DNA from: Nannocystis bainbridge
GTDB lineage: Bacteria > Myxococcota_A > Polyangia > Nannocystales > Nannocystaceae
Reading direction: 5' to 3'
DNA length: 64,000 bases
NCBI RefSeq assembly: GCF_028368995.1
Contig: NZ_JAQNDL010000002.1
Location: 1,216,001 to 1,280,000, forward strand
Shown here: positions 2,546-62,430 of the stretch, in pieces
Layout: each line of letters starts with the position of its first letter
Numbering within the stretch: position 1 is the stretch's first letter
Translations under genes and position numbers: made by a program
Notes under the pieces: generated by a model
Told to the model about the DNA's origin: nothing
What the model saw: only the letters and a program-made list of their open reading frames with translations
Databases searched by the model: none

Positions 2546-2641
2546 GATGTCCTCCGGGACATGTCGAAAAGGGAATGTCGAATCGGACAGGTATGAAGGA
2601 GCAGGTCCGAACGGACAGGTCCGAACGGACAGGTCCGAACG
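2544..2641. repeat. 14-bp-phased GACA[T/G]G-N8 array (7 units)
   Basis: Units at 2544, 2558, 2572, 2586, 2600, 2614, 2628, e.g. gacatgtcgaaaag / ggaatgtcgaatcg / gacaggtatgaagg / agcaggtccgaacg / gacaggtccgaacg. Fills the whole intergenic gap. Confidence 0.9.
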
Positions 2642-2642
2642 G

Positions 2643-3848
2643 TCAGCCGGCGCGGCCGGGGCGGTGGCGGGCGAGGATCCGGCGGGCGGCGGCGACCTTG
2701 TGGACCTCGTCGGGACCGTCGTAGATCCGCGCGCCGCGCTCGCGGGTGTAGAAGAAGGCGAGCACGGTGTCGTCGGTGAGGCCGAGCGCGCCGTGGACCT
2801 GGATCGCGCGGTCGAGGACCTCGGACAGGACCTCGGCGACGTGGAACTTGATCAGCGAGATGTCGTCGCGGGCGGCGGCGAAGCCGTGCTGGTCGATGAG
2901 CCAGGCGGTGCGCAGGACCAGCAGGCGGGCGGCGTCGATGCGGGCGCGGCACTCGGCCAGCCAGGCCTGGACGATCTGCTTGTCGCCGAGGTGCTCGCCC
3001 GGGGCGAGCTCGCGGGCGACGGCCCGCGCGGCCATCAGGCCGAGGGCGCGCTCGCAGATGCCGAGCCAGCGCATGCAGTGGTGGATCCGCCCGGGGCCGA
3101 GGCGCTCCTGGGCGATGACGAAGCCGCCGTGCGCCGGGCCGAGCAAGCTGTCCCTCGGGACACGACAGGCGGTGAACTCGAGCTCGGCGTGCGAGTCCCA
3201 GCCGGCGCCGGCGTGGCCGAAGATCGGGACGTTGCGGACGCGGCGAAACCCGGGGGTGTCGGTCGGGACGATCAGCATGCTGGCGCGCCGATGGGCCTCG
3301 GCAGCGGGATCGGTGACGGCCATGACGACGGCGAAGGCGGCCCCGTCGGCGCCGGTGGTGAACCACTTGCGGCCGTCGAGCACGTAGTCGTCGCCGTCGA
3401 GGCGGGCGGCGCAGCGCAGCAAGGTGGGGTTGGAGCCGGCGGTGTCGGGCTCGGTCATGGCGAAGCAGCTGCGGATGTCGCCGCGCAGGAGCGGCTCCAA
3501 CCAGCGCTCGCGCTGGGCCGGGCTGGCGTAGCGGTGGAGGATCTCCATGTTGCCGGCGTCGGGCGCCTGGCAGTTGCAGGCGAGGTGACCGAGCGGGCTG
3601 CCGCCGAGGACCTCGCTGAGGAGGCCGTGATCGAGGAGCGAGAGGCCGAGGCCACCCTCCTCTTTGGCCATCTGCGGCAGCCACAGGCCCTCGGCGCGGG
3701 CCGCGGCGCGCAGGCCGGCGACGATGTCGTCGCAGTCGGCGACGCCGCGTGCGAGCACGGTCGGCTCGACCGGGAGGACGTGGGTGCGCATGAAGGCGCG
3801 GGCTCGGTCGAGCAGGGCCGCGGTCGCGGGCGGGATCGCGAAGTCCAT
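2643..3848 (-). CDS. Acyl-CoA dehydrogenase (ACAD10/11 / FadE2-like)
   Basis: [54 protein letters not shown] and [10 protein letters not shown] motifs. Confidence 0.96.
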
Positions 3849-4951: not shown

Positions 4952-5035
4952 GATCGGTCCGAAAGGGCATGTCCTTCGGGACATGGGCGAACGGACATGT
5001 TCAAAACGGCATGCGCGAAAGGACAGGTCCTTGCG
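4952..5035. repeat. 14-bp-phased array (6 units), plus a doublet at about 4886-4905
   Basis: gatcggtccgaaag / ggcatgtccttcgg / gacatgggcgaacg / gacatgttcaaaac / ggcatgcgcgaaag / gacaggtccttgcg. Confidence 0.9.
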
Positions 5036-5061
5036 GAGCCTGTCCTCGGTGCCGGCGCGGC

Positions 5062-7697: not shown

Positions 7698-10600
7698 GTG
7701 GCGCAGCAAGACGACAAGGGTGGAAAGCCCGCGAGCACTCCGGGTCGGCCTCCTATCACTCTCCCCGGCGGGCCGCTGCGGGACGACGAGATTCCCCGCG
7801 ATCCCGCGGATCTCTTCGACGCCATCATCGTCGACGAGCGAGCGACCGGGCTGGGCGTGGCTGCCCGTCCGGGGGCCATCCCGCCGATGCCGACGATGCC
7901 GCCGATGGAGGTCGACATCGACGAGGAGATCGAGCTGCAAGCGGACGAACCGGCGCGGCCCCCCTCGCGGCCGGTGCCGCCGGCGCCGCGAGCGCCCGAG
8001 ATCAAGGCCGACAAGCCGGAGCCGAGCAAGCCGGCGCCGGCGCCCACCAGGCCGGAGCCGTCGCGGCCGTTTGCCAAGCTCAGCGAGCCCAAGCCGGCGG
8101 CCGAGTCCGGCAAGCCGGCGCCGCCGACGTTCGGGGCCGGCGGGCTCGGCAAGAGCCTCGGCTCCATGCCGATGCGTGGGGTCTCGCGGCCCACGCCGGC
8201 GCTCGGCAATACGACGCTGATCGGCAGCGGGCCGACGGCCAAGGCGCCGTCGCAGCCGCAACCGGCCGCGCCGGGGTCGCCGCTGGTGGTCCCGCCCGGT
8301 CGCAGGCCTGACGAGTCCGGCACCCGCAAGACGGTCGCCGACGATCTCGAGGTCGATCTCGAGAGCGACGTGCCGGCGGCCGCGCCGAGCATCGACGTGC
8401 TGGCGGTGACCGCCCGCGACGGCGAGATCGATCCGGCGGTGGTGCAGGCGGCGAGGGCCGAGGTCCCGCGCGCCTCCGAGTCGGCGACGCGGCTCTCCAA
8501 CCCCGACACCACGCCGCGGCCCGGTCCGGCGGCGCCGATGCCCGAGGCGCTGCGCACCCGCCTGCTGGCCCGCGGCGCGCCGCCTCCCGGTCCCAGAGGA
8601 CAGGCTCCTTCGGACAGGTCCCCTGTGCCAGGTGCTCCAGGACAGGTCCTTGGGGACAGGTCCTCGGGGCCAGCTCCGCTCGCGCCCGGCGAGCCGCCGC
8701 GCTCGCGGACCACGCCGATGTCGGGCCCCTCGGGGGTGCCGGCGACCGGCGCTCGCGGGCCCTCGGGGCCGGTGACGCGGACCATCTCGAGCCCGGCGAT
8801 GGCGGCCGAGAACCCGTTCCTGCGCGCGGCCCAGGCCCAGATCGAGGCGTGGGAGGCCGAGCTGGCGACCCAGCCCGACCTGTTCCGCGCGGCCCGGCTG
8901 TCGTACGAGATCGGCCGGCTCTACGAGTACCCGCTCGGCGACGTGGTCCAGGCCGGGACCTACTACCTGCGCGCGCACGGGCTGGCGCCCGAGTTTTTGC
9001 CGGTGGTCCGCGGGGCGCGGCGCTCGCTGCTGGCGCAGAAGAACTGGTCGCGCGCGCTGCCGCTGTTCGACACCGAGATCCGGCTGACGTCGGAGCAGAA
9101 GCGCAAGGCGGCGCTGCTGGCCGCCAAGGCGACGGTGCTGCTCGACGGGCTGGCCAACGACGGCGAGGCGCGGGCGACGTTCGCCCAGGCCCGCGACCTC
9201 GACCCGAGCAACGTCGCCTACCTGCGGGCGCTCGAGCAGCTCGACGCCAAGGCCGGCGCGTGGGACCAGCTCGAGCGGACGACCGCGCAGCTGGCCAGCG
9301 CGGTCGAGAAGGACCCGCGCCTGCGCTCGGCGCTGGTGGCCCGCCGGGCCCACCTGGCCGAGGTGCGGCTCAAGAGCGTCGGCAGCTCGGTGGAGCTGCT
9401 CGAGACGGCGCTCGACCTCGATCCGGCGGCGTCGGGCGCGTTCGCGGCGCTCAAGCGCCTGCACCACGGGCAGCACCGCTGGCGCGAGCTCATCAGCGTG
9501 CTCGAGCGCGAGGCCCAGCAGCTGGGCGATCCCGACGTGCGGGCGATGTCCTACTACCGGATCGCCCGCCTGCACTCGGAGCGGCTCGGCAGCCGCGACA
9601 AGGCGATCGCCGCGCTCGAGCGCTCGGTCGCCGAGAGCCCGCGCTACCGCCTGGTGCTCGAGGAGCTGATCCGCCTGTACGAGGCCGCGGAGCGCTACGA
9701 CGCGATGACGCACACGCTGCAGGCGCTGGTCGAGCTGCTCGAGCTGCCGTCGGAGAAGATCAGCGTCCTCTACCAGATCGGCGACATCGTCGAGCACCGC
9801 CTGCACAACGAGGACGAGGCGATGGAGTGGTACGAGGCGGCGCTGGAGATCGAGCCGGCTTACCGCCCGAGCCTGCGCGCGCTGTCGAAGCTGCTGACGC
9901 GCAAGAAGCAGTGGGACCGGCTGCTGCACATGCTGCAGGCCGAGGCCGAGGCGGTCAACGACGGCACGCGGGCGGCCGCGGCGTACACCAAGATGGCGGA
10001 GATCCACGAGGTCCAGCTCGAGGATCCGGAGCGGGCGATGGAGTACCACTCGCGCGCGCTGACGCTGCACCCGGGCCTGGCGACGGCGTTCAAGGCGCTG
10101 CTGCGGCTGTTCGCCGCCTCGGGCCGCCACCACGAGCTCATCGAGCTGCTCGAGCGCGGCATCGACTCGGCCGAGGAGGACGATCGCCGGATCGCGTACC
10201 TCACCCGCATCGCCGACCTCTACGTCGACTACCTCAACGAGCCGGTCCAGGCCGCGCACACGTACCGCCGGATCCTCAAGATCGACCCCGACCACATCGG
10301 GGCGATCCACGCGCTGCAGCGGGCCTGCGAGCTGGCCGGGCGCTACAAGGAGCTGGTCGAGGCGATCGAGCTCGAGGCGAGCAAGACGCTCGACAAGCCG
10401 CGCATCGTCCAGCTGCTCCACCGCGCCGGCGAGGTGCTCGACGAGAAGCTCGACGACCGCGACGGCGCGCTGGTCCGCCTGCGCCGCGTGCTCGAGGTCG
10501 ACCCGAAGTACGCGCCGGCGCTGGCGAGCATCGGTCGCCTGTACCATCGGACAGGTCGCTGGGACGAGCTGCTGCACACCTACGAGCGCGAGCTGGCGAT

Positions 10601-13600
10601 CACGCCGCCGGGCAAGGCCGCGGTGGCGCTGCTGCACACCATGGGCGGGCTGTGCGAGAGCCGGCTGGCCGACACGCGGCGGGCGATCGGCTGCTACCGC
10701 AACGCGATCGAGATCGACGCCAAGCACGGGCCGTCGCTGCACGCGCTGCAGCGGCTGCTCGAGCGCGGCAAGAGCTGGCAGGAGTTGGTCGACGTGCTCG
10801 AGGTCGAGCTGCGCGGGCTGTCGGAGCCGCGGGCCCGGGCGCAGGTGGCGTACCGGGTCGGCCGCGTGTACGAGGAGCACCTGACCGACGCGCCGCGGGC
10901 GGTGGTCGCCTACCAGGCGGCGCTGCAGGCTCTCGGCGACTATCGACCGGCGCTCGACGGCCTGGCCCGCGTGCGCGCGGCGCTCGAGGCATGGCCCGGG
11001 GTGGTCGAGGACCTGGCCCAAGAGGCAGCCACGGCCAAGGACGGATCGCTGGCGACCGCGGCGCTGCTGCGCGCCGGCGAGGTGTTCGCCGAGCAGCTCG
11101 GCCAGCCGGAGCGGGCCATCGCCGCCTACGAGCGGGTGCTCGAGCGCGAGCAGGGCAACCTCGCGGCGATGCTGGCCCTCGACGCGCTGTACCGCCAGCA
11201 GGGCATGTGGAAGTCGCTGGCCGACCTGCAGGTGCGGCTGTCGAAGCACGTCGGCGACGAGGGCGCCAAGGTGGCGGCGCTGCGCGAGCTGGCCCGCCTC
11301 TACGAGGGCCCGGTCGGCGCCGACATCGACACCATCCGCAACACCTACGGGGCGGTGCTGCAGCGCGCGCCCACCGATCCGGTCGCGCTCGCGGGGCTCG
11401 AGCGGCTGGCGCTCGCGGGGCGCGACGATCAGACGCTGGCCCGCATCGACGCCCAGATCGTCGGCATGGAGGGCGAGGACCCGACGCTGCTCGGCGCCTA
11501 CTACACGCGCCTCGGCGAGACGCTCGAGCGCGCCGGCTCGCTGCAAGCCGCGGCCAAGAGCTACGAGATGGCGCTCACCGGCGATCCAGAGAGCCTCGGG
11601 GCGATCCTCGGGCTCGTGCGCGTGTCGACGCTGATCGACGACCCGCGGGCGCTGGCGGCCGCCAAGGCGCGCCTGGCCGCGGCCGAGCGCAGCGGCGAGA
11701 CGGCGGCGGGCCTGCTGGTCGAGACGGCCAAGATCCGGCTGCAGCGGCTCGACGATCCGGAGGCCGCGACGCGGGACCTCGAGCTCGCGCTCGAGCGCTA
11801 CCCCGATCACGCCGAGGCCGCCGACATGCTCTACAAGATCCTGCTCATGCTCGAGCAGGGCACGCGCCTGCTCGAGAAGCTGTCGCAGGCGGCGGCGGCG
11901 GCCCGCGGGGCCGAGCGGTCGGCGGCGTTGTGGCTGCGGATCGCCGAGCTGTACGCCGACGAGCTCGGCAACCTGGCGGGCGGCATCAGCGTGTTGCGAC
12001 GTGTCCTTCGGGACAGGCCACGGCACGCGCCGATGTTGCTGTTCCTGGCCGACCTCTACAACCGCAACGCCCAGTGGGGCGACGCGGCCGAGATCTACGG
12101 CGAGATCCTGCAGGTCGCCAGCCAACCCGACGCGCTGTTCACCGCCAACCGCAACCTCGCCGGGCTGCTCGCCGATCACATCGGCGACCTGCCGCGCGCG
12201 CGTCAGTGCCTCGAAGCGGCGCTGCAGGTGCGGCCCGACGACCGCGGGGCGCTGCTGGCCCTCACCGACGTCTACGCCCGCATGGGCGACGGCGCGGCCG
12301 CGGCCGAGACGGCGCGGCGGCTGCTGCGGGCCTCGACGACCATCGACGACCGCGTGGCCGCGATCGTCCACCTCGCGCACATCGAGCTGCACCAGGGTCG
12401 CCGCATGCAGGGCCTCGAGGCGCTGCTCAGCGCGGTCGCGCTCGAGGGCCCCGACGGCGTCGCGGCCGGCGAGTACGCCAAGCAGGTCCAGTCCGCCGAC
12501 GACTGGGAGCTGTACGAGCAGGCGCTGATGCGGCACCTGCAGCAGGTCGCCGGCGACGACGCCAAGCTCGGGCGCGCTTACCTCGAGCTGGCGCGCGTGC
12601 AGGGCGAGGCGATGCAGCGCTCGGACAAGGCGATCGCCACGCTCGAGTTCGGCATCGCCGAGGTCAAGCAGAACCTCTCGCTGCGGCTCGCGCTCGGCGA
12701 GCGCCTGCGGGCCCAGGGCCTGGCCGATCAAGCCGGCGCCGTGTTCCGCCAGGCCGCAGGGTTCTACCCCGCGTCGCCCGATCCGTGGCGCGGGCTCGTG
12801 CAGTGCTACGTCGACCGCGGCAAGATGGCCGAGGCCGCGCTCGGGCTCGGGCCGCTGTGCGTGCTCGGAGCCGCGAGCGAGTCGGACATGCGGGCGCTGA
12901 GCCGCATGACCCCCAAGCCGGCGTCGGCGGCCCCGAACTCGTTCGCGCCCGAGGTGCTGCGGACCCACCTCGACCGCAGCCAGCAGGGCGCGGTCGCCGA
13001 GAAGCTCATCAACGCGATCAGCCTCAGCCTCAGCAAGCTGTACCTCGGAGACCTCACTCGCTTCAGCGTCAACGTGAAGGAGAAGATCACGGCGCGCTCG
13101 GGCAACCCGCTGCGCGCGTTCGTCGACAAGATCGCGGGGCTGTTCGGCCTGCCGGACTACGACCTCTACGTCTATCGCGGCGCCGGCACCACGGTCAGCC
13201 TCGAGTTCGGCGCGCTGCCGGTGGTGCTCGTGCCGGCCACGGTGCTGCGGCTGTCCGAGCCGCAGCAGGCGTTCGTCATCGCGCGGGCGCTCGCCTACGT
13301 GCAGCGCGGGCTGCAGGCTGTGACCCGCTTCAAGGCCTCCGAGTTGATGCTGATCCTCGCCGCCGCGGCCCGCACCGCCGCGCCCAACTACGGCTCGAAC
13401 CTCGCCGATCCGAGCGCGCTCGACGACCTCCAGCGGCGCATCGTCAAGGTGCTCGGGCGGCGCGAGCGGCAGGTGCTGCAGGACGTCTCGGCCGAATACG
13501 CTCAGTCGGCGCCGGTCGACTTCCATGCGTGGTACGCCGACCTCAAGACGACGTCGCTGCGCGCCGCGGCGCTCATCGCCGCCGACCTGCCGTCGTGTGC

Positions 13601-17112: not shown

Positions 17113-17280
17113 CACGGCGCATCGTAGCCGAGCCCGCCCGCGCCCGGGCCGCGCGCGCGTGAGAACAGGCGAGGGCTCGGCGGGCGCGGGCGATTCGACA
17201 GGGCCGAACGGACATGTCCTTGGGGACATGTGATCGGCTGAGCTTGCGCACGGGCGCGGCTCCGCTACGTTGACGCCGTC

Positions 17281-19474: not shown

Positions 19475-19537
19475 CGACCGACCCGCGTCGGGCCGGGCTT
19501 GCCGCCGGCGGTCCTCGGCCTCAGTCTGTCGCCCCCG

Positions 19538-21887: not shown

Positions 21888-21899
21888 GCTGGCCTTGTA

Positions 21900-23788
<1,889 letters not shown>

Positions 23789-41981: not shown

Positions 41982-42365
41982 ATGCCGATCCGCGCTCTGG
42001 TCGTCGATGACTCCGCGGCGATGCGGACCTTCGTCAGCTCGGTCCTGGAGTCGACCGGTGATTTCGATGTCGACGAGGTCGGGCACGGCTTCGAGGCCAT
42101 ACGCCTGCTGCCTCGCGGCGACTACGCCCTGTTCGTGTTCGACGTCAACATGCCCGACTTCAGCGGGATCGAGCTGATCCGGGCCGTGCGCGAGCAGCCG
42201 CGTTACTCGCGGACGCCGCTGGTGGTGATGACCACCGAGGGCCGGCTCGGCGATCTCGAGCGGGCGCGCCAGGCCGGGGCGCAGGTCGTGATCACCAAGC
42301 CGTTCACGCCGGCGGGCCTGCTCGAGGCCGTGACGCGGGCGCGCGAGCTCGGAGGCGCGGATTGA
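41982..42365 (+). CDS. cheY: CheY-like single-domain response regulator
   Basis: VVDDS, FDVNMP, MTTEG and TKPF motifs. Confidence 0.9.
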   Translation: MPIRALVVDDSAAMRTFVSSVLESTGDFDVDEVGHGFEAIRLLPRGDYALFVFDVNMPDFSGIELIRAVREQPRYSRTPLVVMTTEGRLGDLERARQAGAQVVITKPFTPAGLLEAVTRARELGGAD

Positions 42366-51822: not shown

Positions 51823-52880
51823 CCCCAGGCCGCCGCGCCGGGCCTCGCGGGGCCGGCGGCGAGGCGGCGGGTGCTGGTCGTTCGGGCAGGTCCGAATGGA
51901 CAGGTCCGAAACGACAGGCAGGGGGGCGACCGGGAGCTGGTCGTTCGGGCAGGTCCGAAGGGACAGGTCCAAAACGACAGGCGGAGGGCGGCTCGCTCGC
52001 GCGGGCGATCGAGGCGTACCTCGAGCACCTGAAGGTCGAGCGGCGGCTGCGGCCCAACTCGCTGCTGGCGTACGGCGGCGACCTCGAGGCGTTCGCGGCC
52101 CACGCGGAGGCGGCGGAGGTCGAGGCGCTGGCGGCGGTGTCGCCGGCGCTGTTGCTGCGCTTCGCGGTCGGGTTGGCGCAGGCGGGGCTGTCGCCGCGCA
52201 GCCAGGCGCGGCGGCTGACGGCGGTGCGCGGGCTGTTTCGGTTCCTGCGCGAGGAGGGCCAGCTCGAGGTCGACCCGGCCCAGGCGCTGCGCCTACCGAA
52301 GCTGCCCAAGCGCTTGCCGGAGCTGCTGAGCCGCGGCGAGGTCGAGGCGCTGCTGGTCGCGCCGGGGCAGGACGGCCCGCTGGCGCTGCGCGACACGGCG
52401 CTGCTCGAGCTGCTCTATGCGACAGGTTGCCGGATCTCCGAGGCCCTCGATCTGACCCTCGATCGGCTCTACCTCGATCAAGCGATTGTGCGGCTCACCG
52501 GCAAGGGGGACAAGCAGCGGCTGGTGCCGCTCGGCTCGCCCGCGATCGCGGCGCTGCAGGCGTGGCTGACGAGCGGACGACCGGAGTTGGTGCGCGGCTC
52601 GCTGCGCTGGGTGTTCGTCAACCATCGTGGGGGCAAGCTGTCGCGCGTGGGTTTCTTCCTCAAGCTGCGGGAGCACGCGCTGGCGGCCGGCATCACGCGC
52701 CCGATCTCGCCGCACAAGCTGCGGCACAGCTTCGCCACGCATCTGCTCGAGGGCGGCGCCGACCTGCGCGCCGTGCAGGCGCTGCTCGGGCACGCGGACA
52801 TCGCCACGACGGAAATCTACACGCACGTGACGCGCGACCACCTGCGCGAGCGCCACAAGCGGCACCACCCGCGGGCGTGA
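51819..52880 (+). CDS. xerD: Tyrosine recombinase XerD with N-terminal extension
   Basis: LYATGCRISE, GKGDKQRLVP, SPHKLRHSFATHLL, LLGHADIATTEIYTH and HHPRA motifs; GTGA coupling to cheY. Confidence 0.92.
   Translation: MTPGRRAGPRGAGGEAAGAGRSGRSEWTGPKRQAGGRPGAGRSGRSEGTGPKRQAEGGSLARAIEAYLEHLKVERRLRPNSLLAYGGDLEAFAAHAEAAEVEALAAVSPALLLRFAVGLAQAGLSPRSQARRLTAVRGLFRFLREEGQLEVDPAQALRLPKLPKRLPELLSRGEVEALLVAPGQDGPLALRDTALLELLYATGCRISEALDLTLDRLYLDQAIVRLTGKGDKQRLVPLGSPAIAALQAWLTSGRPELVRGSLRWVFVNHRGGKLSRVGFFLKLREHALAAGITRPISPHKLRHSFATHLLEGGADLRAVQALLGHADIATTEIYTHVTRDHLRERHKRHHPRA
51871..51985. repeat. 63-bp duplication built from 14-bp-phased GACAGG units at the xerD 5' end
   Basis: gctggtcgttcg-ggcaggtccgaa(tg/gg)-gacaggtcc(g/a)aaac-gacagg at 51873 and 51936. 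Confidence 0.85.
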
Positions 52881-53061: not shown

Positions 53062-53117
53062 GAGATGGCGGAATGGACATGGCGGAACGGGCATGTCCGA
53101 TCGGTCATGTATGCTCC
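53062..53117. repeat. 14-bp-phased array (4 units)
   Basis: gagatggcggaatg / gacatggcggaacg / ggcatgtccgatcg / gtcatg... Confidence 0.85.
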
Positions 53118-54032: not shown

Positions 54033-57000
54033 ATGGAGCAGGGAAGCACGGGCCTCGGCGAGGGCGCTCCTCGCACGCGCGAGCGCAAAGGCCCTTCGAG
54101 CCCGGTCTATTCGGTCGAGCTCGAGGTGTTCGAGGGCCCGCTCGACCTGCTGCTGCACCTGGTGCGCAAGCACGAGCTCGACATCCTCGACATCCCGATC
54201 GCGTTCGTCGCCGAGAAGTACCTCGCGTACCTCGACGTGATGCGTCAGCTCGACCTCGAGATCGCGGGCGACTACCTGGTGATGGCGGCGACGCTGGCCT
54301 ACCTGAAGAGCCGCGAGCTGCTGCCGCCCGAGCCGCGCGCCGGCGAGGCGGGTCAGAGCGAGGAAGACGAGGGCGAGGACCCACGCGAGGCGCTGATCCG
54401 CCGGCTCGTCGAGTACGAGCGGTTCAAGCAGGCGGCGGCCGAGCTCGACTCGCTGCCGATGTCGGGCCGCGACGTGTTCGCTCGCGGCGCCGAGCTGGTG
54501 ATGCCGCCGGTCGATCCGGGGCTCGCGCCGGTGTCGCTGTTCAACCTCGCGGAGGCGTACTACCGCGTGCTCACGCGCGCGAAGGTGAAGTCGACCCACG
54601 AGGTCCAGATCGAGGCGGTGACGGTGGCCCAGCGGATCAAGCAGCTGGCGCTGATCCTCGAGGAGAAGCCGCACTTCGAGTTCGAAGAGCTGTTCCTGAA
54701 CCGCACCTGGGGCAGCGAGCGGGAGCTGCGGGCGATGGTGGTAGTGACCCTGATGTCGATCCTCGAGATGGTGAAGCTCGGGGTGGCGGGGGTGCAGCAG
54801 CCGCTCGACAGCACGACGATCCGGATCTACCGCCGCGCGTCCGCGGAGCAGACGCAGGCGGCGCTGGCCGACTACGACGAGGACGAGAGCTTCGGCGCGC
54901 CGAAGCCAAAGGCCGGCGAAGAGGAAGGCGCGCCGGCGAAGCCGCGCGAGACCGGGGCGTCGCGCGCAGCGGCGGAGGCGGAGCTCGATGCGGTCGAGGA
55001 GGCCGCGCTGCTGGCGGAGGCGCTGGCGTCGGTGCAAGAGCCCGAGGAGCCTGTCGTCGGCTACGCGGACGAGAGCGAGGATGTGGCGGCGAACGACGCC
55101 GCGAGCGAGTATGACGACGAGCCACGCCCGGCGCCGCGACGCAGCCGGAGCGAGGGCCGCCGGCCTGTGCTCGAGGACAGGGACGAGGCGATCGAGGAGA
55201 CGGCGGACGAGCGCTTCGTGATCGTCGAGGGGTCGAGCGCCGAGCCGCCGCGCGAGCACGTGAGCCGGTGGGGACGGGGCGCGGACGAAGCGGAGGAGCA
55301 GCGGGCCGGCGAGGAACTGTTGGAGCCCGGGGCGACGGCGGTGGGCGAGGATGTCCCCGGGGACATGTCGATCTCGGGGGAGCCAGGCGGAGTCGAGGAT
55401 GTCCTCGGGGACATGTCGACTGCGGCCGAGGATGCCCTCGAGGACATGCCGGGTGCTGATGCGTCGGGCGAAGATCTGTCCGCGGGTCCTGAAGATGGCC
55501 TTGTCGCGGGTGCGGGCGGAGAGATGCCCGGGGATTCGCTGGAGGCCGAAGATGTCCTTGAGGACATGCTGGCTGCGACGGACGAGACGGTCGCAATCGA
55601 GGATGTCTCGGAGGCGTTGCCGGACACAGGTGTCGCGGAGGGCCTCGAGGGTCTCTCCGGAGCGGACGATGAGCCGGCCGGGTCGGTGGAGGCCGAGGAT
55701 GTCCTTGGGGACATGCCGTTCGGGGACGACACGGCAGCAGCGACCGAATCGGGGCTGATCGCGGAGCTTGCGAGCGAGTCGGGCGAGCTGTCGAGCGCTG
55801 AGGACGAAGAATCGCCGCGCGGCGAGGATGACCTCGGGGTGCTGACGGTCGATGTCGCCGAGGACGAGGGCGACGGACGCGCATCGTTCGGCGAGCCGGA
55901 AGAGGGCGGCGGCCTGGATGTCCCTGAGGACACCTCCGTCATAGCGAGTGACGAGCGACTTTCGGCTGAAGACGAAGGTTTCTTTGAAGAAATTGCACGC
56001 GGCGTCGCGGTCGGAGCTGCGGAGGAACCACAGGAGAAATCCGAGAGCGACGAGAGCGCGGGGGCCGATGCTGGGGTCGCAGACGAGGCGCTCGCTCAGG
56101 GGGGCCTTGGTACTGGCTGGAGAGCGGGCGATGAGCCGGCCGCGTCGGTGAGGGCCGAGGATGTCCTCGGGGACATGCCGCTCGCCGACGACCAGGCAGC
56201 AGCAAGCGAGTCGGGTGAGCCTTCGGGCGCAGCGGACGAAGAGTCGCCGCGTGGCGAGCTGGACCTCGAGGCCCTGCCGGCCGACTTCGCCGAGGAAGAT
56301 AGCGACGGACGCGCATCGGCAGGGGCGGACCTGGATGTCCTCGAGGACGCATCCGGCTCCGCGGCGGGCGAGCGCCTCCTGGTTGCTGAGGAAGGTTCGT
56401 CGGCTGAAGCCGTTGCTCGCAGCGTCGCGGTCAGAGCTACCGAGGAGCCGCGGGAGGATGTTGAAAGCCTCGAGGGCGCGGCGATCGATGCTGGCTTCGC
56501 TGGCGAGGAGTCCGTCGCGGGCGAAGTCTTTGCCGACGCAGTGACGGAGGCCGCCGAGGAACTGCCGGAGCAATCCCGGAGTGACGCGAGCGTGGCGGAG
56601 GATGCGGGCTTCGCTGGCGAGGAGCTCGCCGCGGACGAAGTCATCGCCGACGCGGCGACGGAGGGAGCTGAATCCTCCAATGCCGGCGAAGGTGCCATGG
56701 CGCGCGGGGACGCGACGGAGGCCGCTGGAGCGGCTGACGGCGATACCGTGACTGTCGCAGACGTGGCGACGGAGGCGGCCGGATTTGCGGATGCGGGCGA
56801 AGACCCGGTCGTCGATACGGGGGATGTCGCTGACAGCGTCCCGGAGCGGTTGGCCGAGGCGCTGCTGCCGGAAGTTGCTAGCGACGAAGATGTCGTGACG
56901 GCAGATGCCGTCGTGCCGACGGAAGTCGCGGAGCCCGCCGACGGAGAGCGAGATGCGGCGGACGTCGCTGCCGGAGAGCGGCGCGAAGATGTCCTTGAGG

Positions 57001-57218
57001 ACATGTCTGATGTCGCGGTTCGGAAAGCCGAAGCGGTCCCCGAAGACGGCGAGGCGGGAGATCCAGCCGACGCCGGGCGCGAGACGACCGACGAGAAAGA
57101 AGCTGTCCTTTCAGACAGCGACGAAGAAGAGGCCGGCGGGTTGTTCCTCAACACCGGCGAGGGCCTCGGGGGCCGCGAGCTCGGCGACGTCGATGACGAT
57201 GAGGATGACGCGCAGTGA
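54033..57218 (+). CDS. scpA: Segregation and condensation protein A with about 790-aa acidic C-terminal extension
   Basis: FEGPLDLLLHLVRKHELDI, YLVMAATLAYLKSRELLP and ILEMVK motifs, then an E/D/A-rich tail. Confidence 0.92.
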   Translation: MEQGSTGLGEGAPRTRERKGPSSPVYSVELEVFEGPLDLLLHLVRKHELDILDIPIAFVAEKYLAYLDVMRQLDLEIAGDYLVMAATLAYLKSRELLPPEPRAGEAGQSEEDEGEDPREALIRRLVEYERFKQAAAELDSLPMSGRDVFARGAELVMPPVDPGLAPVSLFNLAEAYYRVLTRAKVKSTHEVQIEAVTVAQRIKQLALILEEKPHFEFEELFLNRTWGSERELRAMVVVTLMSILEMVKLGVAGVQQPLDSTTIRIYRRASAEQTQAALADYDEDESFGAPKPKAGEEEGAPAKPRETGASRAAAEAELDAVEEAALLAEALASVQEPEEPVVGYADESEDVAANDAASEYDDEPRPAPRRSRSEGRRPVLEDRDEAIEETADERFVIVEGSSAEPPREHVSRWGRGADEAEEQRAGEELLEPGATAVGEDVPGDMSISGEPGGVEDVLGDMSTAAEDALEDMPGADASGEDLSAGPEDGLVAGAGGEMPGDSLEAEDVLEDMLAATDETVAIEDVSEALPDTGVAEGLEGLSGADDEPAGSVEAEDVLGDMPFGDDTAAATESGLIAELASESGELSSAEDEESPRGEDDLGVLTVDVAEDEGDGRASFGEPEEGGGLDVPEDTSVIASDERLSAEDEGFFEEIARGVAVGAAEEPQEKSESDESAGADAGVADEALAQGGLGTGWRAGDEPAASVRAEDVLGDMPLADDQAAASESGEPSGAADEESPRGELDLEALPADFAEEDSDGRASAGADLDVLEDASGSAAGERLLVAEEGSSAEAVARSVAVRATEEPREDVESLEGAAIDAGFAGEESVAGEVFADAVTEAAEELPEQSRSDASVAEDAGFAGEELAADEVIADAATEGAESSNAGEGAMARGDATEAAGAADGDTVTVADVATEAAGFADAGEDPVVDTGDVADSVPERLAEALLPEVASDEDVVTADAVVPTEVAEPADGERDAADVAAGERREDVLEDMSDVAVRKAEAVPEDGEAGDPADAGRETTDEKEAVLSDSDEEEAGGLFLNTGEGLGGRELGDVDDDEDDAQ

Positions 57219-57243
57219 CGGCGGCCGTGACAGGGGGTAGGAG

Positions 57244-60200
57244 ATGGTGAAGCCGCGCAAGACGGGCCTGAAGGCCCCTCCGCGGGTGCATGCGGGCGAG
57301 AGCGTGCCGGCGGTCGAGGCCGATGCGCCCGAGCCGACGGCGGAGGCGCCGGAGGCCGAACCCGACGAGCTTGCACAGGCCGAGGTCGACGCCGCGGAGG
57401 ACGTGACGGACGAGGATGCTTCTGCGGTGGCGCAGGAGGGACCCGTCGAGGACGCGGCAGAGGCAGGGGCGAGCGATGAAGCTGCGGAGGCCGGTGAGCC
57501 AGCCTCCGAGGAAGAGACGCGCGAGGCGCCGTCGCGCCCCGTCCGCCGCGGTCGCAAGGCTGCGCGCAGCCAGAGCGCGGCCAGCGAGGCGACCGCGGAT
57601 AGCGAGCCACCGCGGAAGGGCCGGCGGGGCCGCAAGGACCGAGCGAGCGCGGGCGATGGGATCGTCGGCGAAGACAGCGAGGTCGAAGCGGGGTCGACTG
57701 CACCCGCTAGCGGGCCGGACGAGGGCGAGGGCAGCGACGAGAAACGTGCAACGGTCGAGGGATCGGAGCTGGCCGATGAGACAGGTGCTTCTGGATCTGG
57801 CGAGGGGCGAGCGCTAGACGCTGACGACGCGTCAGCCGTGGTCTCGGGTGATGCGTCGCGGGCGACCGAGGAGGCAGCCGCTTCGCAAGGGAGCGAGGGC
57901 AGTGGTTCGTCCGATTCGCAGGTGTCCGAAGGGACAGATTCCCCGGGCGCCGGCGACGATGCCCGGGTGGAGGATCCTTCGGGCGCAACGGGTGAGGCTG
58001 CGGCCGAGCTGGCCGAAGGAGCAGGTCCGGAGGATGCGATCGCGGCGGCGCTGGCTGCCGCCTCGACGCCGCGGGCCGCCACCCCGGGGGTGGTGCTCAG
58101 CGACGAGCTGCCGATCGACCCCGACGACGACCTGCGCGGGATCGAGGGCGAGGCATCGGCGCGGCTGGTGTCGATCCTCGAGAGCCTGCTGTTCTCGGCG
58201 GCCAAGCCGTTGTCGGTGAAGGACCTGCGCAAGGTGCTGCAGGAGACCAGCCAGCGGCAGATCCAGCTGGCGCTGCGTCACCTGCTGGACGTGACGAGCT
58301 CGCGCGGGGTGGTGCTCGCGCAGGTCGCGGGCGGGTTCCAGTTCCGCACCCACCCGGAGAACGCGGTGTGGGTGCAGAAGATGCTGCAGGCGAAGCCGGC
58401 GAAGCTGAGCCGCACGCAGATCGAGACGCTGGCGATCGTGGCTTACCGACAGCCGGTGACTCGTCCGGAGATCGATGACATCCGCGGGGTCGACAGCGGC
58501 GCGGTGTTGAAGTCGTTGCTCGAGCGCGAGCTGATCCAGATCGTCGGCAAGAAGGACGAGCCGGGGCGCCCGCTGCTGTACGGGACGACCGTGCGGTTCC
58601 TCGAGTTCTTCAATCTCCGTGGGCTGCGCGACCTGCCGACGCTGCGAGACTTCCGTGATCTGTCCGAGGAATCCAAGGCGACCGTGCGCGAGCGCCTCGG
58701 TGACTTGCAGATCGCAGAGGCGCTGGGTCAGGAGGTGCTGGGGTTCGCCGGTGCCGAAGGAAAGGTCCCAGAGGACATGACCCCGGGGACAGGTGCGGAG
58801 GTGCCGGGGGGCGCGGCCGGGGAAGGTGCGGGCGGCGAAGCGTCGAGCACGGGCGCGTCGCAGCTTGAAGATGCGAGCCCGCAGTCTGCGGAGACGGGCG
58901 AGGACGGAGGCGTCGTTGCCTCAGGCGAGCAGGCGGAAGACGCGGCGAGCGGTGAGGCGGCGAGCGCCGGTACGGGCGAAGCCGCGGATGATGCAGGCAG
59001 CGCGAGTCGCTCCCACGACCTGAGCCCAGCGGATGCGGACGAAACCGCAGGAGCGCGTGGCTCGGGAGAACAGCGTCCGCCCGACGATACGGATGGTGTG
59101 GGCACGGTCGGCGATGCGGATGACGCGGGGGCGACCCGTGACGCGCGGGACGCCGTTACGGTGGATGAGGCCGACGACGCGGCGGCGACGGGGGACTCGG
59201 AGAGCCTCGGCACGGTCGTCGATGCGGATGAGGCGGGAGAGCCGGAGGACTCGCGGGCTCAGAATGCGATCGACGACGAGCACGCGACGAGTCACCCGGA
59301 CTCGGAGGACGAGTCCGGTGGCGACGCGGAGGACGCGGGCGAGTCGGATAACTCGGGGGAGCCCGGTACGATTGACGCTGTGAGCGACGCTCGCGCGGCG
59401 AGGGACCCGGACTCGGAGGACGAGTCTGGTGGCGACGCGGCGAGTGAGGCGGCCTCGAGGCCGGACTCGGAAGACGCGTCTGGCGAAGCGGATGCGGTGA
59501 GTGACTCGGTCTCGGAGGATGCCGCCGGCGGTGACGCGGACGCGGCGGACGAGTCGGAGCTCGAGACTGCGGACGACGCGGACGTGGCGAGCGGCTCGGA
59601 GAGCGAGCCCGCGGACGACGCGGAGACGGCGAGCGGCTCGGACGATGAGCCGGCGGACGACGCGGAGGCGGCGAGCGGCTCGGACGACGAGTCTGCCGAC
59701 GACGCGGACGTGGCGAGCGACTCGGAAGTCGAGACCACGGGCGACGCGGACGTGGCGGGCGACTCGGAAGTCGAGACTACAGACGACGCGGACGTGGCGA
59801 GCGACTCTGACGACGGCGCTGAGGACGACGGCGTGACGAGCGAATCAGCCGCGGACGACGCTGATCCAGACGACGCGGCTGCGCGAGTGGATGGCGATCG
59901 GAAAGAAGCCCCCGAGTCGGGCGACGACACGCATGGCGGTTCCGGCTCCGCGGAAGAGGGAGAAGGACCGGGACTGAACCGCGACGACGCCCTTGAAGCC
60001 GCGCCCAGCGACGACGAGGAGGAGACCGCTGCGATCACCGATCGGCGGGTCGAGCTCGACGATGAATTCGTGACGCGAGTGGACGCCGACGAGCTCAGCG
60101 AACATGATCCTGAGGACATGTCAGGGGATGCCGCGTCGGAGCAGGACGAGGACGCGAGCGCCAGCAAGCCGGCGGATCGCGCCGAACAAGATGACGAGGA

Positions 60201-60345
60201 CGGTGAGCACGGGCTCGCCGACGAGGACGGCGAGCGTGAGCTCGCCGACGAGGGCTCCGAGGAGCGCGAGGCATTCGACGGGGCGGTCACGCCTCGTCGG
60301 AAGCCGCGCGAGCCGGGGGCCGAGGATGAAGATGCCGAGAATTGA
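57244..60345 (+). CDS. scpB: Segregation and condensation protein B with long acidic N- and C-terminal extensions
   Basis: Core ILESLLF...VAGGFQFRT...ETLAIVAYRQPVTR..IDDIRGV...GRPLLYGTT..FLEFF...DLP at about 58110-58700. Confidence 0.93.
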   Translation: MVKPRKTGLKAPPRVHAGESVPAVEADAPEPTAEAPEAEPDELAQAEVDAAEDVTDEDASAVAQEGPVEDAAEAGASDEAAEAGEPASEEETREAPSRPVRRGRKAARSQSAASEATADSEPPRKGRRGRKDRASAGDGIVGEDSEVEAGSTAPASGPDEGEGSDEKRATVEGSELADETGASGSGEGRALDADDASAVVSGDASRATEEAAASQGSEGSGSSDSQVSEGTDSPGAGDDARVEDPSGATGEAAAELAEGAGPEDAIAAALAAASTPRAATPGVVLSDELPIDPDDDLRGIEGEASARLVSILESLLFSAAKPLSVKDLRKVLQETSQRQIQLALRHLLDVTSSRGVVLAQVAGGFQFRTHPENAVWVQKMLQAKPAKLSRTQIETLAIVAYRQPVTRPEIDDIRGVDSGAVLKSLLERELIQIVGKKDEPGRPLLYGTTVRFLEFFNLRGLRDLPTLRDFRDLSEESKATVRERLGDLQIAEALGQEVLGFAGAEGKVPEDMTPGTGAEVPGGAAGEGAGGEASSTGASQLEDASPQSAETGEDGGVVASGEQAEDAASGEAASAGTGEAADDAGSASRSHDLSPADADETAGARGSGEQRPPDDTDGVGTVGDADDAGATRDARDAVTVDEADDAAATGDSESLGTVVDADEAGEPEDSRAQNAIDDEHATSHPDSEDESGGDAEDAGESDNSGEPGTIDAVSDARAARDPDSEDESGGDAASEAASRPDSEDASGEADAVSDSVSEDAAGGDADAADESELETADDADVASGSESEPADDAETASGSDDEPADDAEAASGSDDESADDADVASDSEVETTGDADVAGDSEVETTDDADVASDSDDGAEDDGVTSESAADDADPDDAAARVDGDRKEAPESGDDTHGGSGSAEEGEGPGLNRDDALEAAPSDDEEETAAITDRRVELDDEFVTRVDADELSEHDPEDMSGDAASEQDEDASASKPADRAEQDDEDGEHGLADEDGERELADEGSEEREAFDGAVTPRRKPREPGAEDEDAEN
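59569..59820 (+). repeat. 42-bp (14-aa) tandem repeat x6 in the ScpB tail
   Basis: Units at 59569, 59611, 59653, 59695, 59737, 59779 encoding ADDADVASGSESEP-like peptides. Confidence 0.85.
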
Positions 60346-60375
60346 GCCGCGAGGCGGCGCGAAGGAGCAGCGAGC

Positions 60376-62430
60376 ATGAAGCGAACGACCAACCAGGGCA
60401 GGGCCAGTGGAACGAAGGCCGCCGCGCGGTCGCAGGGCGCCCGAAATCAGGGCAAGCCACAAAGCCGCCGAGACGCGGCAGGGGCCGAGCGACCCGCGGG
60501 CAAGGGCGGCGCGGGACGAGCTCGTCCCGCCGGAGCCGCAGGGCGCGGGCGTGCCGGGGGCGAGACCCGAGGCGGCGCAGGTCCAGCAGGGCGAGACAGG
60601 CCGGGGCGCCGGGGTGCCGAGGGCGCGGAGACCGACGGCGCGTCGGCTGGCCGCAAGGGCAGGTCCGATGCGCCAGGTCGTGGCGAGCATGTTCGAAAGG
60701 ACATGTCCCGTGGCACAGGCGCGCCGGGGCGCGGGCGCGGCGGCACGGCCGCGGGCGCCGACCGCGACGGCGGGACGCGGACCCGGGGCGGGCGTCCTGA
60801 GGAGACCGCGCAGCGGCGGGCTGTCCGCGGGGACAGGTCGGAGTCCGCGGGCCGGGCTGTCCGTGGGGACAGGTCGGAGTCCGCGGGCCGGGCTGTCCGT
60901 GGGGACAGGTCGGAGTCCGCAGGCAGGGCCGGCCGGGGGCAGTCCAAGGGGCAGGCCGTCCGTGGCAGCAGAGCGGAGCCCACGGGTCGCGCTGGCCGAA
61001 GGGACAGGACCGAGCCCACGGGGCGGGCTGGCCACAAGGAGTTTGCGGGGCGAGCTGCCCGCGGGAACAGGTCGGACTCGGCGGGTCGTCCTGGTCGTGG
61101 GGACAGGTCGAGCGCCGGCAGAGCCGCGCGCGAGGACCGGGACGACGCCGGGACGCATGAGGCTGTCCGTGGGGACAGGCCGGCGGCGCGCGGCGCGGCC
61201 CGCTCGGCCGGCCGCGAGTCGGCGGGTGACGGCGAGCGGGCAGTCCGCGGGCGCAAGCCTGAGGGTCGAGCCGCCGCGCGCGCAAACGGGGCGCCGCGCG
61301 GCGCCCTCCGCGGCCCGACCGGTCGGGCCGCGGCCCGCGGCGGTGCGGCTGCCCGTGGCGACGGGTCGCACGAGCGCACCGGCGCGGCCGGCGGTGCTTC
61401 CGGGAAGCCGAAGGCACCTGCCTCGAAGGCCAGCAAGGCTCGCGGCAAGGCGGCGGGCAGCGCGGCGCCACGCGGCCTGACGGACGCGGTGGGGCTGCGC
61501 CAGGCGGAGCGGACGGCGGCGGAGCGGACCGGGGCGAAGACCCGGGCGAAGAAGGGGATCGCGGCCGCGCCGGAGATCCTGCGGCCCCCGAAGTTGCGCC
61601 TGCAAAAGGCGCTGGCGGCGGCGGGCGTGACCTCGCGGCGCAAGGCCGAGGATCTGATCGAGGCCGGCGCGATCAAGGTCAACGGCAAGCGGGTCACCGA
61701 GCTGGGTTCGAAGGTCGATCCCGATCGCGACGTGATCGAGGTCCGAGGCTCGCGCATTCAGCTGGAGAAGAAGGTCTACTTCCTGCTGAACAAGCCCGAC
61801 GGGGTGGTGTGCTCGGCGGAGGGGCCGAAGGACAACGAGGGGCGGCCGACCGTGCTGTCGCTGTTCCCCGAGCTGCCGCAGCGGATCTACCCGGTCGGTC
61901 GCCTCGACTTTCACAGCCGCGGGGCGCTGATCCTGACCAATGACGGCGATCTCGCGGCGGCGTTGACCCACCCGCGGCACGAGATCCCGAAGACGTACCA
62001 CGTGAAGTTCCAGGGCAAGCTCACGGAGGACGAGCTCGGCACCCTGGCCAACGGGGTCACGCTCGAGGACGGGACGGTCACGCGCCCGGCGGCGGAGGTC
62101 AGCGTCATCAAGGACACCGCGACCAACAGCTGGGTGCAGATCACCCTGCAGCAGGGCCTCAATCGCCAGCTGCGCCGCATGGGCGAGGCTATCGGCAGGC
62201 CGGTGCTGAAGCTGATCCGCGTCGCTATCGGCGGCCTCACGGCGGACGGACTGGCAGATGGTGAGTTTCGTCCGCTGACCCCGACCGAGGTCTACGACCT
62301 CATGGCGGCCGCTTCGCCGGCTGCGGCGCCCGCCGCCAAGGCCCGGGCCCAGGGCGGCGCCGGGGATTCACCCGCGAGCACGGGCGGCCGGGCGCGTTCC
62401 CGGCTTGCGCCGGGGAAGCGGGCGGGGTAG
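60376..62430 (+). CDS. rluB: 23S rRNA pseudouridine synthase (RluB/RsuA family) with about 400-aa Arg/Gly/Ala-rich N-terminus
   Basis: RLQKALAAAGVTSRRKAE (S4 domain), LNKPDG, YPVGRLD and GLNRQLRRM motifs; follows scpB. Confidence 0.92.
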   Translation: MKRTTNQGRASGTKAAARSQGARNQGKPQSRRDAAGAERPAGKGGAGRARPAGAAGRGRAGGETRGGAGPAGRDRPGRRGAEGAETDGASAGRKGRSDAPGRGEHVRKDMSRGTGAPGRGRGGTAAGADRDGGTRTRGGRPEETAQRRAVRGDRSESAGRAVRGDRSESAGRAVRGDRSESAGRAGRGQSKGQAVRGSRAEPTGRAGRRDRTEPTGRAGHKEFAGRAARGNRSDSAGRPGRGDRSSAGRAAREDRDDAGTHEAVRGDRPAARGAARSAGRESAGDGERAVRGRKPEGRAAARANGAPRGALRGPTGRAAARGGAAARGDGSHERTGAAGGASGKPKAPASKASKARGKAAGSAAPRGLTDAVGLRQAERTAAERTGAKTRAKKGIAAAPEILRPPKLRLQKALAAAGVTSRRKAEDLIEAGAIKVNGKRVTELGSKVDPDRDVIEVRGSRIQLEKKVYFLLNKPDGVVCSAEGPKDNEGRPTVLSLFPELPQRIYPVGRLDFHSRGALILTNDGDLAAALTHPRHEIPKTYHVKFQGKLTEDELGTLANGVTLEDGTVTRPAAEVSVIKDTATNSWVQITLQQGLNRQLRRMGEAIGRPVLKLIRVAIGGLTADGLADGEFRPLTPTEVYDLMAAASPAAAPAAKARAQGGAGDSPASTGGRARSRLAPGKRAG
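60817..60925 (+). repeat. 36-bp tandem repeat x3, each containing a perfect TGTCC-N4-GGACA
   Basis: Motifs at 60822, 60858, 60894; encodes (AGRAVRGDRSES)n. Confidence 0.9.

Follow-up and report, generated by a model that had tools for sequence, protein, structure and literature searches.

TGTCC-N4-GGACA, a 14-bp palindromic word iterated throughout the genome of Nannocystis bainbridge and arrayed at gene ends

The 64,000-nucleotide stretch of Nannocystis bainbridge DNA analyzed here (the window; positions 1216001 to 1280000 of contig C3) includes an acyl-CoA dehydrogenase gene, genes for TPR and HEAT-repeat proteins, a mutagenesis cassette with dnaE2, and the genes scpA and scpB, and a short bipartite palindrome, TGTCC-N4-GGACA, recurs both within these genes and in the spacers around them. 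The perfect unit is 14 bp long, and its arm positions are numbered 1 to 5, mirrored by 10 to 14. A preliminary description of this DNA had listed 32 perfect copies; the window holds exactly 32, every listed start is exact, and the count in 100 dinucleotide shuffles of the window averaged 0.03 and never exceeded 1. With one mismatch allowed, the matches number 69 (1.6 expected), and the 37 copies beyond the perfect ones include the GGTCC.., ..AGACA, and ..GGGCA variants noticed earlier. The 4-nt spacer is variable in sequence, also as described.

The excess is a property of the whole genome (an 11.05-Mb assembly with 71.5% GC in five contigs, C1 to C5). TGTCC-Nx-GGACA occurs 1,987 times at x = 4 and 0 to 19 times at each other x between 0 and 15, and the enrichment is therefore specific to the 4-nt spacing. 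In absolute numbers no other 5-N4-5 palindrome is as frequent here, even though the genome is richer in GC than the motif. Copies with one arm mismatch number 4,258, giving 6,245 units with at most one mismatch, and TGTCC-N4-GGACA is over-represented about 100-fold or more. The commonest spacers, TTCG together with CGAA, account for 193 of the 1,987 sites.

Units placed head to tail create a second palindrome, as had been pointed out. GGACA stands immediately before 5 of the 32 window sites, producing GGACATGTCC, and this 10-mer (GGACA-Nx-TGTCC with x = 0) has 956 genomic copies, with at most 19 at each x from 1 to 12. Four bases to either side of GGACATGTCC the pairing arm is nearly always present (G, 0.83; C, 0.87), whereas only about every second 14-mer is abutted by a half-site, which indicates that the 14-mer is the unit and the 10-mer its junction. 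Half-sites outnumber reversed-word controls, but a hand count attributes roughly all of this surplus to units that are perfect or have one mismatch, leaving no enrichment of half-sites that stand alone. When the 14-mer is masked, the flanks resemble those of a distant site in only 287 of 1,987 cases and are unique for 1,700. The units are therefore not the ends of miniature inverted-repeat transposable elements (MITEs) or insertion sequences (ISs), an alternative that the preliminary description had raised against its own reading.

Tandem arrangement follows an exact period. Distances between neighboring units with at most one mismatch peak at 14 (485 cases), 28 (274), and 42 bp (165), and distances from CATG to CATG peak at 14 (3,736), 28 (2,073), 42 (1,586), and 56 bp (751); a spacing of 36 bp forms a minor peak genome-wide (65 cases). 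Chains, defined as units with at most three mismatches each at an exact 14-bp step, number 1,808 with two units and 1,332 with three or more, the longest having nine, and steps of 12, 13, 15, or 16 bp yield at most 3 chains of three or more. The GC content of chains with four or more units is 59%, compared with 70% across all spacers. Variant units are grouped in blocks, e.g., the GGTCC arrays at 2604 and 8589 of the window, which points to local tandem duplication. Between species, arrays keep their place in orthologous spacers while their individual units turn over fast. Arrays are nevertheless not the only form, as no other unit abuts 1,309 of the 1,971 perfect sites that are genic or intergenic. 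The 14-mer is the basic unit of a Nannocystis-specific short dispersed repeat that multiplies locally as arrays of 14-bp period.

Placement was assessed with genes called by a codon-usage log-odds score (8,225 genes, 85% coding), and all genic and intergenic counts are approximate and dependent on this caller. Genome-wide, 1,161 perfect sites are intergenic (58%), 810 are genic (41%), and 16 fall at the edge of a gene. With spacers occupying 15% of the genome, site density in them is 8 times that in genes. The preliminary description placed the motif mostly inside genes, which holds for the window (19 genic and 13 intergenic sites) but not for the genome; it was silent on this intergenic majority, on the exact 14-bp arrays, and on the bias toward gene 3' ends and convergent spacers. 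Density is 1.63 sites/kb in convergent spacers (n = 1,294), 0.64 to 0.70 in tandem spacers (n = 3,472), and 0.21 in divergent spacers (n = 1,443). Among spacers of at least 30 bp, a unit with at most one mismatch is present in 57% of convergent, 27% of tandem, and 16% of divergent spacers; the corresponding values are 49, 19, and 10% for a chain of at least two units and 37, 11, and 3% for a chain of at least three. The convergent bias persists despite the greater length of divergent spacers. The poverty of the divergent spacers, which bear promoters, upholds the earlier statement that the motif does not look like a regulon. Sites lie at a median of 64 bp from the upstream stop codon, a quarter of them within 22 bp, and genic sites are spread evenly along genes, using the three reading frames 462, 283, and 65 times.

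Along the chromosome the motif is uniform. Mapping relative to origin and terminus gave about 18 sites per 100 kb on all five contigs, with no gradient or gap, and a reading of chromosome position of the matS/SlmA type, to which the motif had been likened, was not borne out. GC skew flips from positive to negative at about 1.5 Mb of C3, about 250 kb downstream of the window, with unit density unchanged; this switch probably marks a replication terminus or origin. Six 100-kb bins are poor in units, with 2 to 3 each (C1, 0.5 to 0.6, 1.1 to 1.3, and 1.8 to 1.9 Mb; C2, 1.8 to 1.9 Mb; C5, 0.4 to 0.5 Mb). Four of them have a GC content of 68.6 to 69.7% and the other two of 70.7 to 71.1%, native codon usage is weaker in all six, and GC skew is close to zero in most. 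These bins probably represent large regions that are acquired or atypical.

Several observations indicate that the unit is kept by selection on the DNA sequence, even at third codon positions. Synonymous-codon shuffling within genes (10 shuffles) left 24.8 sites on average and never more than 33, compared with the 810 observed, so the excess survives a codon-preserving null. Units also need rare codons: TGT supplies 10% of Cys, GGA 2.8% of Gly, and ACA 2.3% of Thr codons. Arm conservation was measured by aligning sites to 1.2 Mb of a relative, G001, that is about 90% identical; 20 short alignments and 1 ambiguous one were dropped, 6 with indels were excluded, and 109 sites were usable. At the 88 genic sites, 38 of 880 arm positions had changed (4.3%), compared with 10.7% of flanking positions (p = 4e-11). 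The difference is found at third codon positions as well, where 18 of 340 arm positions (5.3%) and 657 of 3,880 flanking positions (16.9%) had changed (p = 6e-10). The 21 intergenic sites gave 11 changes in 210 arm positions (5.2%) against 12.3% in flanks (p = 0.001), which is weaker evidence, as within arrays the aligned unit may be a neighbor of the true ortholog. Spacers differed from G001 more than flanks did (42.9% versus 12.3% intergenic and 18.5% versus 10.7% genic). Hypervariability of the spacer was set aside as an interpretation: misalignment of arrays is possible, and because genic positions near the unit also change fast (14.1%, by hand), most of the effect is attributable to low local constraint.

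The perfect site at 31797 in dnaE2 illustrates how a genic copy may originate. It is written in the codons TGT CCC AAG GGA CAT (CPKGH), which are kept in six Nannocystis genomes, and at the same place four other genera read GEKGT, GDRGQ, APKGR, and SDKGS with no indel. Substitution without an indel, followed by retention in six genomes, shows that genic copies can arise by substitution and persist. Judged from such alignments, the solitary genic copies appear to arise by point substitution and to be conserved thereafter.

The units of the window are collected in Table 1.

Table 1. Perfect units and chains of TGTCC-N4-GGACA in the window (positions of the window; chains as defined in the text)
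Positions	Unit or chain	Location and remarks
2548-2561	Perfect	Intergenic; first of 3-unit chain 2548-2589
2604-2645	3-unit GGTCC-N4-GGACA variant chain, exact 14-bp step	Intergenic region shared with the 2548 chain
3149-3162	Perfect	Inside acyl-CoA dehydrogenase gene (2643-3848, minus strand)
4956-5039	6-unit chain	Intergenic; includes perfect unit 4970-4983
8589-8672	6-unit GGTCC/GGACA variant chain	Called 5' part of 2017-aa TPR open reading frame (ORF); coding status uncertain
12002-12015	Perfect	Inside TPR protein gene
17215-17228	Perfect, GGACA before it	Intergenic; in G001 arms kept, spacer changed
18157-18170	Perfect, abutted by one-mismatch unit at 18143	Genic by own call (167 nt past called start)
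19906-19919	Perfect	Inside gene 19499-20950; identical in G001
21890-21987	7-unit chain	Intergenic; includes perfect 21918-21931; degenerate continuation, CATG every 14 bp, to ~22170
24063-24076	Perfect	Convergent intergenic region 23788-24123
24102-24115	Perfect, GGACA before it	Convergent intergenic region 23788-24123
28821-28862	3-unit chain	Convergent region 28748-29066; includes perfect 28835-28848; degenerate units at 28965-29048
31797-31810	Perfect	Inside dnaE2; in-place substitutions; kept in 6 Nannocystis genomes
31970-32039	5-unit chain	Inside Nannocystis-specific DnaE2 insertion of ~65 aa
32611-32652	3-unit degenerate chain	Inside imuB-like gene
33277-33290	Perfect	Inside imuB-like gene; identical in 5 relatives
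33619-33632	Perfect	Inside imuB-like gene; identical in 5 relatives
33868-33881	Perfect	imuB-like gene; arms kept in 3 of 4 aligned relatives (G010: one arm change), flanks 80-83% identical, spacer differs
34350-34391	3-unit chain	Inside gene 34100-34849
34784-34797	Perfect	5' coding part of gene 34100-34849 (imuA position)
36304-36345	3-unit chain	Intergenic; includes perfect 36318-36331
37243-37256	Perfect	Inside gene 36616-37764
46875-46888	Perfect	Inside HEAT-repeat gene
47373-47386	Perfect	Inside HEAT-repeat gene
51875-51979	Two 3-unit chains	51875-51916 and 51938-51979
53066-53107	3-unit chain	
55352-55365	Perfect	Long C-terminal extension of ScpA, read ..EDVPGDM..
55400-55413	Perfect	ScpA extension
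55553-55566	Perfect	ScpA extension
55700-55713	Perfect	ScpA extension
55919-55932	Perfect	ScpA extension
56162-56175	Perfect	ScpA extension
56990-57003	Perfect	ScpA extension
57923-57936	Perfect	Between scpA and called scpB start; inside longer ORF 57244-60345
58750-58791	3-unit chain	Inside scpB ORF
60822-60907	Three perfect units (60822, 60858, 60894)	One per copy of 36-bp tandem repeat; upstream of called rluB start
61164-61177	Perfect	Upstream of called rluB start; inside longer ORF 60376-62430

Some genic arrays lie in protein segments peculiar to the lineage. The DnaE2 insertion (residues ~73 to 140, ~65 aa) is found only in Nannocystis and is absent or much shorter in four other genera. 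ScpA (54033-57218) has 1,061 aa, of which residues 43 to 248 match the Pfam ScpA domain; the low-complexity C-terminal extension of ~800 aa repeats an acidic motif of the ..EDV(L/P)GDM.. type that is encoded by the palindrome, with seven perfect sites between 55352 and 57003. ScpB (58090-60345) has 751 aa, with its domain at residues 29 to 185 and a very long low-complexity C-terminal extension. A megablast search of 55256-61463 against G001 gave no alignment of at least 1,500 bp. Among the neighboring genes, those at 29066-34849 on the minus strand form a mutagenesis cassette in the order imuA-imuB-dnaE2, the first gene being named by position only. A GTTCAG-type box lies ~20 to 30 nt upstream of that gene (~34865-34885), like the one upstream of lexA (C1:3164914). 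An RluB-like pseudouridine synthase gene was called at 61489-62430; the longer ORF 60376-62430 would put the 36-bp repeat in an N-terminal extension. The genes for ribosomal protein S1 and a CheA-type histidine kinase (38911-40623 and 42362-44554), in a run of genes on the same strand, form an ordinary housekeeping context, and both lack a perfect unit.

The distribution of the motif among genomes is narrow. Counts were made in 31 related genomes with a reversed word as the control. All 11 Nannocystis genomes have 114 to 2,090 copies each, scaling with assembly size (control, 1 to 6); two other genera of the family have 87 and 161 copies (control, 10 and 1); and the remaining 18 genomes, from other genera of the family and class, have 0 to 7, similar to the control. 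The motif is thus common to all Nannocystis genomes searched, weak in two sister genera, and not above the control elsewhere. In 400 kb of the sister genus with 161 copies (g4), 13 units were found, only at x = 4, all solitary and without 14-bp arrays. Nine of the 13 were alignable at the site in the N. bainbridge genome, where 1 was perfect and 3 had one mismatch; at 70 to 84% identity, conservation over this depth was not clearly above chance for these nine sites.

Two abutting units were also sought across 185,579 species, with one genome per species, and occurred only in Nannocystis, in Mesorhizobium, and on three single contigs of metagenome-assembled genomes (MAGs). The Nannocystis matches comprised N. 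punicea, N. pusilla, N. exedens, N. radixulma, one further strain, and several MAGs. The Mesorhizobium units (~16 species) were rejected as the same element, as the one locus read, in Mesorhizobium shonense (L033, 4320-4362), is part of a longer 42-bp perfect palindrome that contains two abutting units and lies between glycosyltransferase-like ORFs. This palindrome occurs once per listed stretch in many Mesorhizobium species (~15 loci besides M. shonense) and may be either a terminator that has been conserved or a repeat of Mesorhizobium. Among the stretches listed, those from viral contigs had one match each, and none of these contigs was rich in units. No description of the motif was found in the titles and opening parts of abstracts of the literature on bacterial palindromes, myxobacterial and Sorangium repeats, operators with these two arms, or Nannocystis palindromes and multicopy single-stranded DNA (msDNA).

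A number of candidate partners and origins were considered and discarded. Mobilization by a REP-associated tyrosine transposase (RAYT), as for REPINs, where REP stands for repetitive extragenic palindromic, received no support from a PF01797 search, which gave 0 matches in this genome (3 candidates scored; marker-gene completeness, 90.5%) and matched 6 of 14 control genomes. The unit resembles a PadR operator, and a PF03551 search of the genome gave no match. It also resembles a LexA box of the CTGT-N8-ACAG type; the regions upstream of lexA and imuA carry the GTTCAG-type box instead, without the unit. An autoregulated binder was sought among the 42 genes of at most 320 aa that are no more than 200 bp from a perfect divergent-spacer site. 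Six of them, chosen by eye, were scanned: two belong to TetR, one each to MarR and ArsR, and two to no family, which by estimate shows neither a recurrent family nor an excess. An extra type IIA topoisomerase was not found either, each Nannocystis genome searched having two PF00521 genes, as in most relatives searched (one to three each, none found in one).

Mobile and retroelement origins fared similarly. Lampson and Rice are said to have reported retron- or msDNA-derived repeats of Nannocystis in 1997. In a review (PMC6868368), the repeats of N. exedens are described as duplicated msr/msd copies. In the present genome, a retron-like msr/msd region with long inverted repeats lies just upstream of the reverse transcriptase gene at C1:2369264-2370817, and this region lacks the unit; the second nonintron reverse transcriptase gene (C1:3253745-3255046) directly follows a coding sequence. 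Three group II intron copies with identical scores are present (C1:3394425, C2:1697652, and C3:907422), with Rfam intron domains matched on the one scanned. The copy examined (L106) contains no perfect unit, and none adjoins its 5' end.

Whether the unit acts as a sequence word or as a hairpin is addressed by the pattern of its variants. The 4,258 one-mismatch copies are distributed over arm positions 1 to 5 (both arms summed) as 432, 50, 1,889, 498, and 1,389, so that positions 2/13 are almost invariant and the middle pair, 3/12, is the most tolerant. A middle pair that is freest and a near-fixed position 2 are the opposite of what hairpin stability would lead one to expect. Compensated double changes are near the expectation of independent decay calculated by hand (TGTCT/AGACA, 127 versus ~94), with the exception of C-G at position 3, which exceeds it (146 versus ~60 expected; spacer-control background, 28). 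Furthermore, flanks and spacer are symmetric regardless of the direction of transcription. The arms therefore appear to be read base by base as two half-sites, a geometry that suggests a dimeric binder of duplex DNA.

On these grounds the 14-bp unit is tentatively viewed as a duplex-DNA word bound by a dimeric protein, with arrays at the ends of transcription units serving as two-way barriers or supercoil-handling sites, a reading to which we give a little less than an even chance. A dimeric sequence-specific protein would read the unit as duplex DNA, with half-site contacts mainly at positions 1, 2, and 4 and the 4-bp center left unread; the two invariant G/C positions are separated by 11 bp, close to one helical turn. 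At the ends of transcription units, particularly where two of them converge, each array would take up several dimers and might then form a two-way barrier, either a transcription roadblock or insulator or a supercoil-handling site. The same protein would occupy the solitary genic copies at a low level. A bolder form of the idea, which we consider improbable, is that a dedicated protein, or a sharply specific type IIA topoisomerase cutting across the 4-bp center, assembles on the arrays of about half of all convergent spacers as a boundary system for transcription units that stops read-through or relieves supercoils, with the ~800 in-gene copies being secondary.

A number of points weigh against the dimer-bound word. 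The candidates examined (PadR, LexA, topoisomerase, and promoter-side regulators) yielded no binding protein, and binding itself is inferred. Because 14 bp does not correspond to a helical repeat, successive dimers of an array would wind around the DNA, and the commonest spacers, TTCG and CGAA, are not symmetric, which a symmetric dimer leaves unexplained. Arrays form very stable stems as RNA, at -29 and -51 kcal/mol (z, -6.4 and -7.2), and also as single-stranded DNA, and placement at 3' ends fits a role in RNA equally well. Tolerance alone could yield part of the placement bias, as convergent spacers lack promoters, and the genic and intergenic counts behind that bias come from home-made gene calls and are approximate.

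The array folds also fit a REP-like RNA element, in which stem-loops at mRNA 3' ends would act as two-way terminators or as blocks to 3' exonucleases, the arms being conserved by descent or by an RNA-binding factor. This alternative is considered unlikely, though it is the most probable of the rivals. It would account for the short distance of sites from stop codons, for chains in about half of the convergent spacers, and for TTCG among the commonest spacers, and a 20-kb test stretch has a single consensus-type terminator just past a gene end. However, single units as RNA (-8.8 to -12.5 kcal/mol; z, -1.0 to -2.8) are unremarkable for their composition, and DNA folding values of units and arrays are about half the RNA values. 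The tolerance of the middle stem pair, the constraint on position 2, and the lack of clear enrichment of compensated doubles speak against a stem. No wobble bias was detected in transcript-oriented one-mismatch units: changes that keep a G-U pair and those giving C-A numbered 256 and 232 in spacers, counted for units downstream of codirectional genes (p = 0.30), and 298 and 378 in genes. Read in the sense orientation, 25 spacers are TTCG and 32 are CGAA, so the former is not favored. An intrinsic (Rho-independent) terminator was rejected, as T is not enriched at +4 to +15 after the unit in 484 sites oriented with the upstream gene, leaving no U-tract signal; in the 20 kb scanned, one unit (24101-24116) passed the consensus scan. 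The 810 copies inside ORFs, evenly spread and conserved at synonymous positions, also speak against an RNA element.

A second alternative is an uptake or self-recognition signal comparable to the DNA uptake sequence (DUS) or uptake signal sequence (USS), in which a receptor or nuclease favors the word, recombination enriches it where tolerated, and arrays and 3'-end placement are by-products. Thousands of copies, restriction to a genus with weaker presence in two sister genera, conservation at synonymous sites, the use of frames in proportion to codon tolerance, and depletion in bins of low GC and atypical codon usage (2 to 3 versus ~18 per 100 kb) all fit, and genes of the ComEC and DprA families are present, yet these families also match in 10 to 11 of 14 control genomes. 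The absence of any excess of lone half-sites argues otherwise, as only the exact 5-N4-5 palindrome counts; known uptake sequences are asymmetric words in which single copies dominate, and chains of up to nine units at an exact step are not known to be a feature of them. We regard this explanation as rather unlikely. A functionless selfish microsatellite, expanding by replication slippage and short-patch gene conversion and persisting where harmless, is a possibility rated lower still. The exact step, the blocks of variant subfamilies such as the GGTCC arrays, the fast turnover of units in orthologous spacers while the array stays, and the occurrence of arrays in lineage-specific, fast-evolving insertions and tails of DnaE2, ScpA, and ScpB are in its favor, but neutral decay would not leave 50 variants at one position and 1,889 at another, solitary genic sites arise by substitution with rare codons and have third positions evolving three times slower than flanking ones, and two-thirds of the perfect sites (1,309 of 1,971) stand without an abutting unit. 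The dyad geometry resembles operators of dimeric repressors, and TG...CA is common at transposon termini; even so, an ordinary transcription factor operator (a regulon), or the ends or footprints of a MITE, an IS, a RAYT-mobilized REP, or a retron-derived repeat, is very improbable, given that promoter-bearing divergent spacers are poorest in units, that 6,245 sites with at most one mismatch far exceed a regulon, that flanks are mostly unique, that no Y1 transposase was found in the genome, and that the retron and group II intron regions examined lack the unit. The remaining probability belongs to explanations not thought of.

Iterated words that extend over a genome are rare; those known include REP, highly iterated palindrome 1 (HIP1), DUS/USS, and Chi, and every one of them has given access to some part of chromosome biology. 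The Nannocystis motif is a very clean case, combining a single spacing, an excess of ~100-fold or more, selection at synonymous sites, placement at convergent ends, and an exact array geometry, and its occurrence in culturable strains with complete genomes makes the reader of the word directly testable. For annotation, arrays mark gene ends in a 72%-GC genome in which gene calling is hard, and they explain the odd low-complexity insertions and tails in DnaE2, ScpA, and ScpB. If real, the boundary system described above, of a kind yet undescribed, would amount to an insulator of bacteria that is spelled out as a fixed DNA word.

No known repeat or binding-site family accounts for TGTCC-N4-GGACA, as defining features of each family compared fail. 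The REP sequences and bacterial interspersed mosaic elements (BIMEs) of enterobacteria and pseudomonads, including REPINs with RAYT, share short palindromic units in hundreds to thousands of copies, lineage specificity, fast turnover, and arrays at gene 3' ends and between convergent genes (here 1.63/kb versus 0.21/kb in divergent spacers). BIMEs of E. coli are bound or cut by gyrase, IHF, and Pol I. The present unit differs in its 14-bp length, free 4-bp center, and exact 14-bp abutting; it breaks the extragenic-only rule, with 41% of perfect copies inside ORFs (810 of 1,987), its genic copies appear by point substitution, and no Y1/RAYT gene was found. Likeness to known iterated motifs, proposed in the preliminary description, holds for HIP1 and uptake sequences, which likewise are conserved, specific to a lineage, similar in copy number, and found in genes as well as spacers, and fails for the matS/SlmA type. 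HIP1 of cyanobacteria, for which we know of no agreed function, is likewise a short palindrome whose frequency in both coding and noncoding DNA exceeds expectation by orders of magnitude and whose conservation goes beyond the neutral level; it is a contiguous octamer of different sequence, whereas the Nannocystis motif is bipartite (5-N4-5), biased toward convergent spacers, and arranged in tandem arrays. The DUS of Neisseria and the USS of Pasteurellaceae have ~10 specified bases, ~2,000 copies, genus "dialects," tolerated frames in genes, enrichment after genes, depletion in foreign DNA, and positions of unequal importance in common with it, but their words are asymmetric and mostly single, unlike a palindrome that counts only in full at one spacing and forms long arrays. 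The sites matS, SBS (of SlmA), and NBS (of Noc) are 12- to 16-bp palindromes bound by dimers, located in genes and spacers without relation to promoters; they come in tens of copies, found either only in the terminus region or only outside it, in contrast to thousands of units with no origin or terminus pattern. Rickettsia palindromic elements also lie inside ORFs as lineage-specific insertions in tolerant protein segments, but those are mobile units of ~100 to 150 bp, whereas the Nannocystis unit is 14 bp long and many of its genic copies are not insertions.

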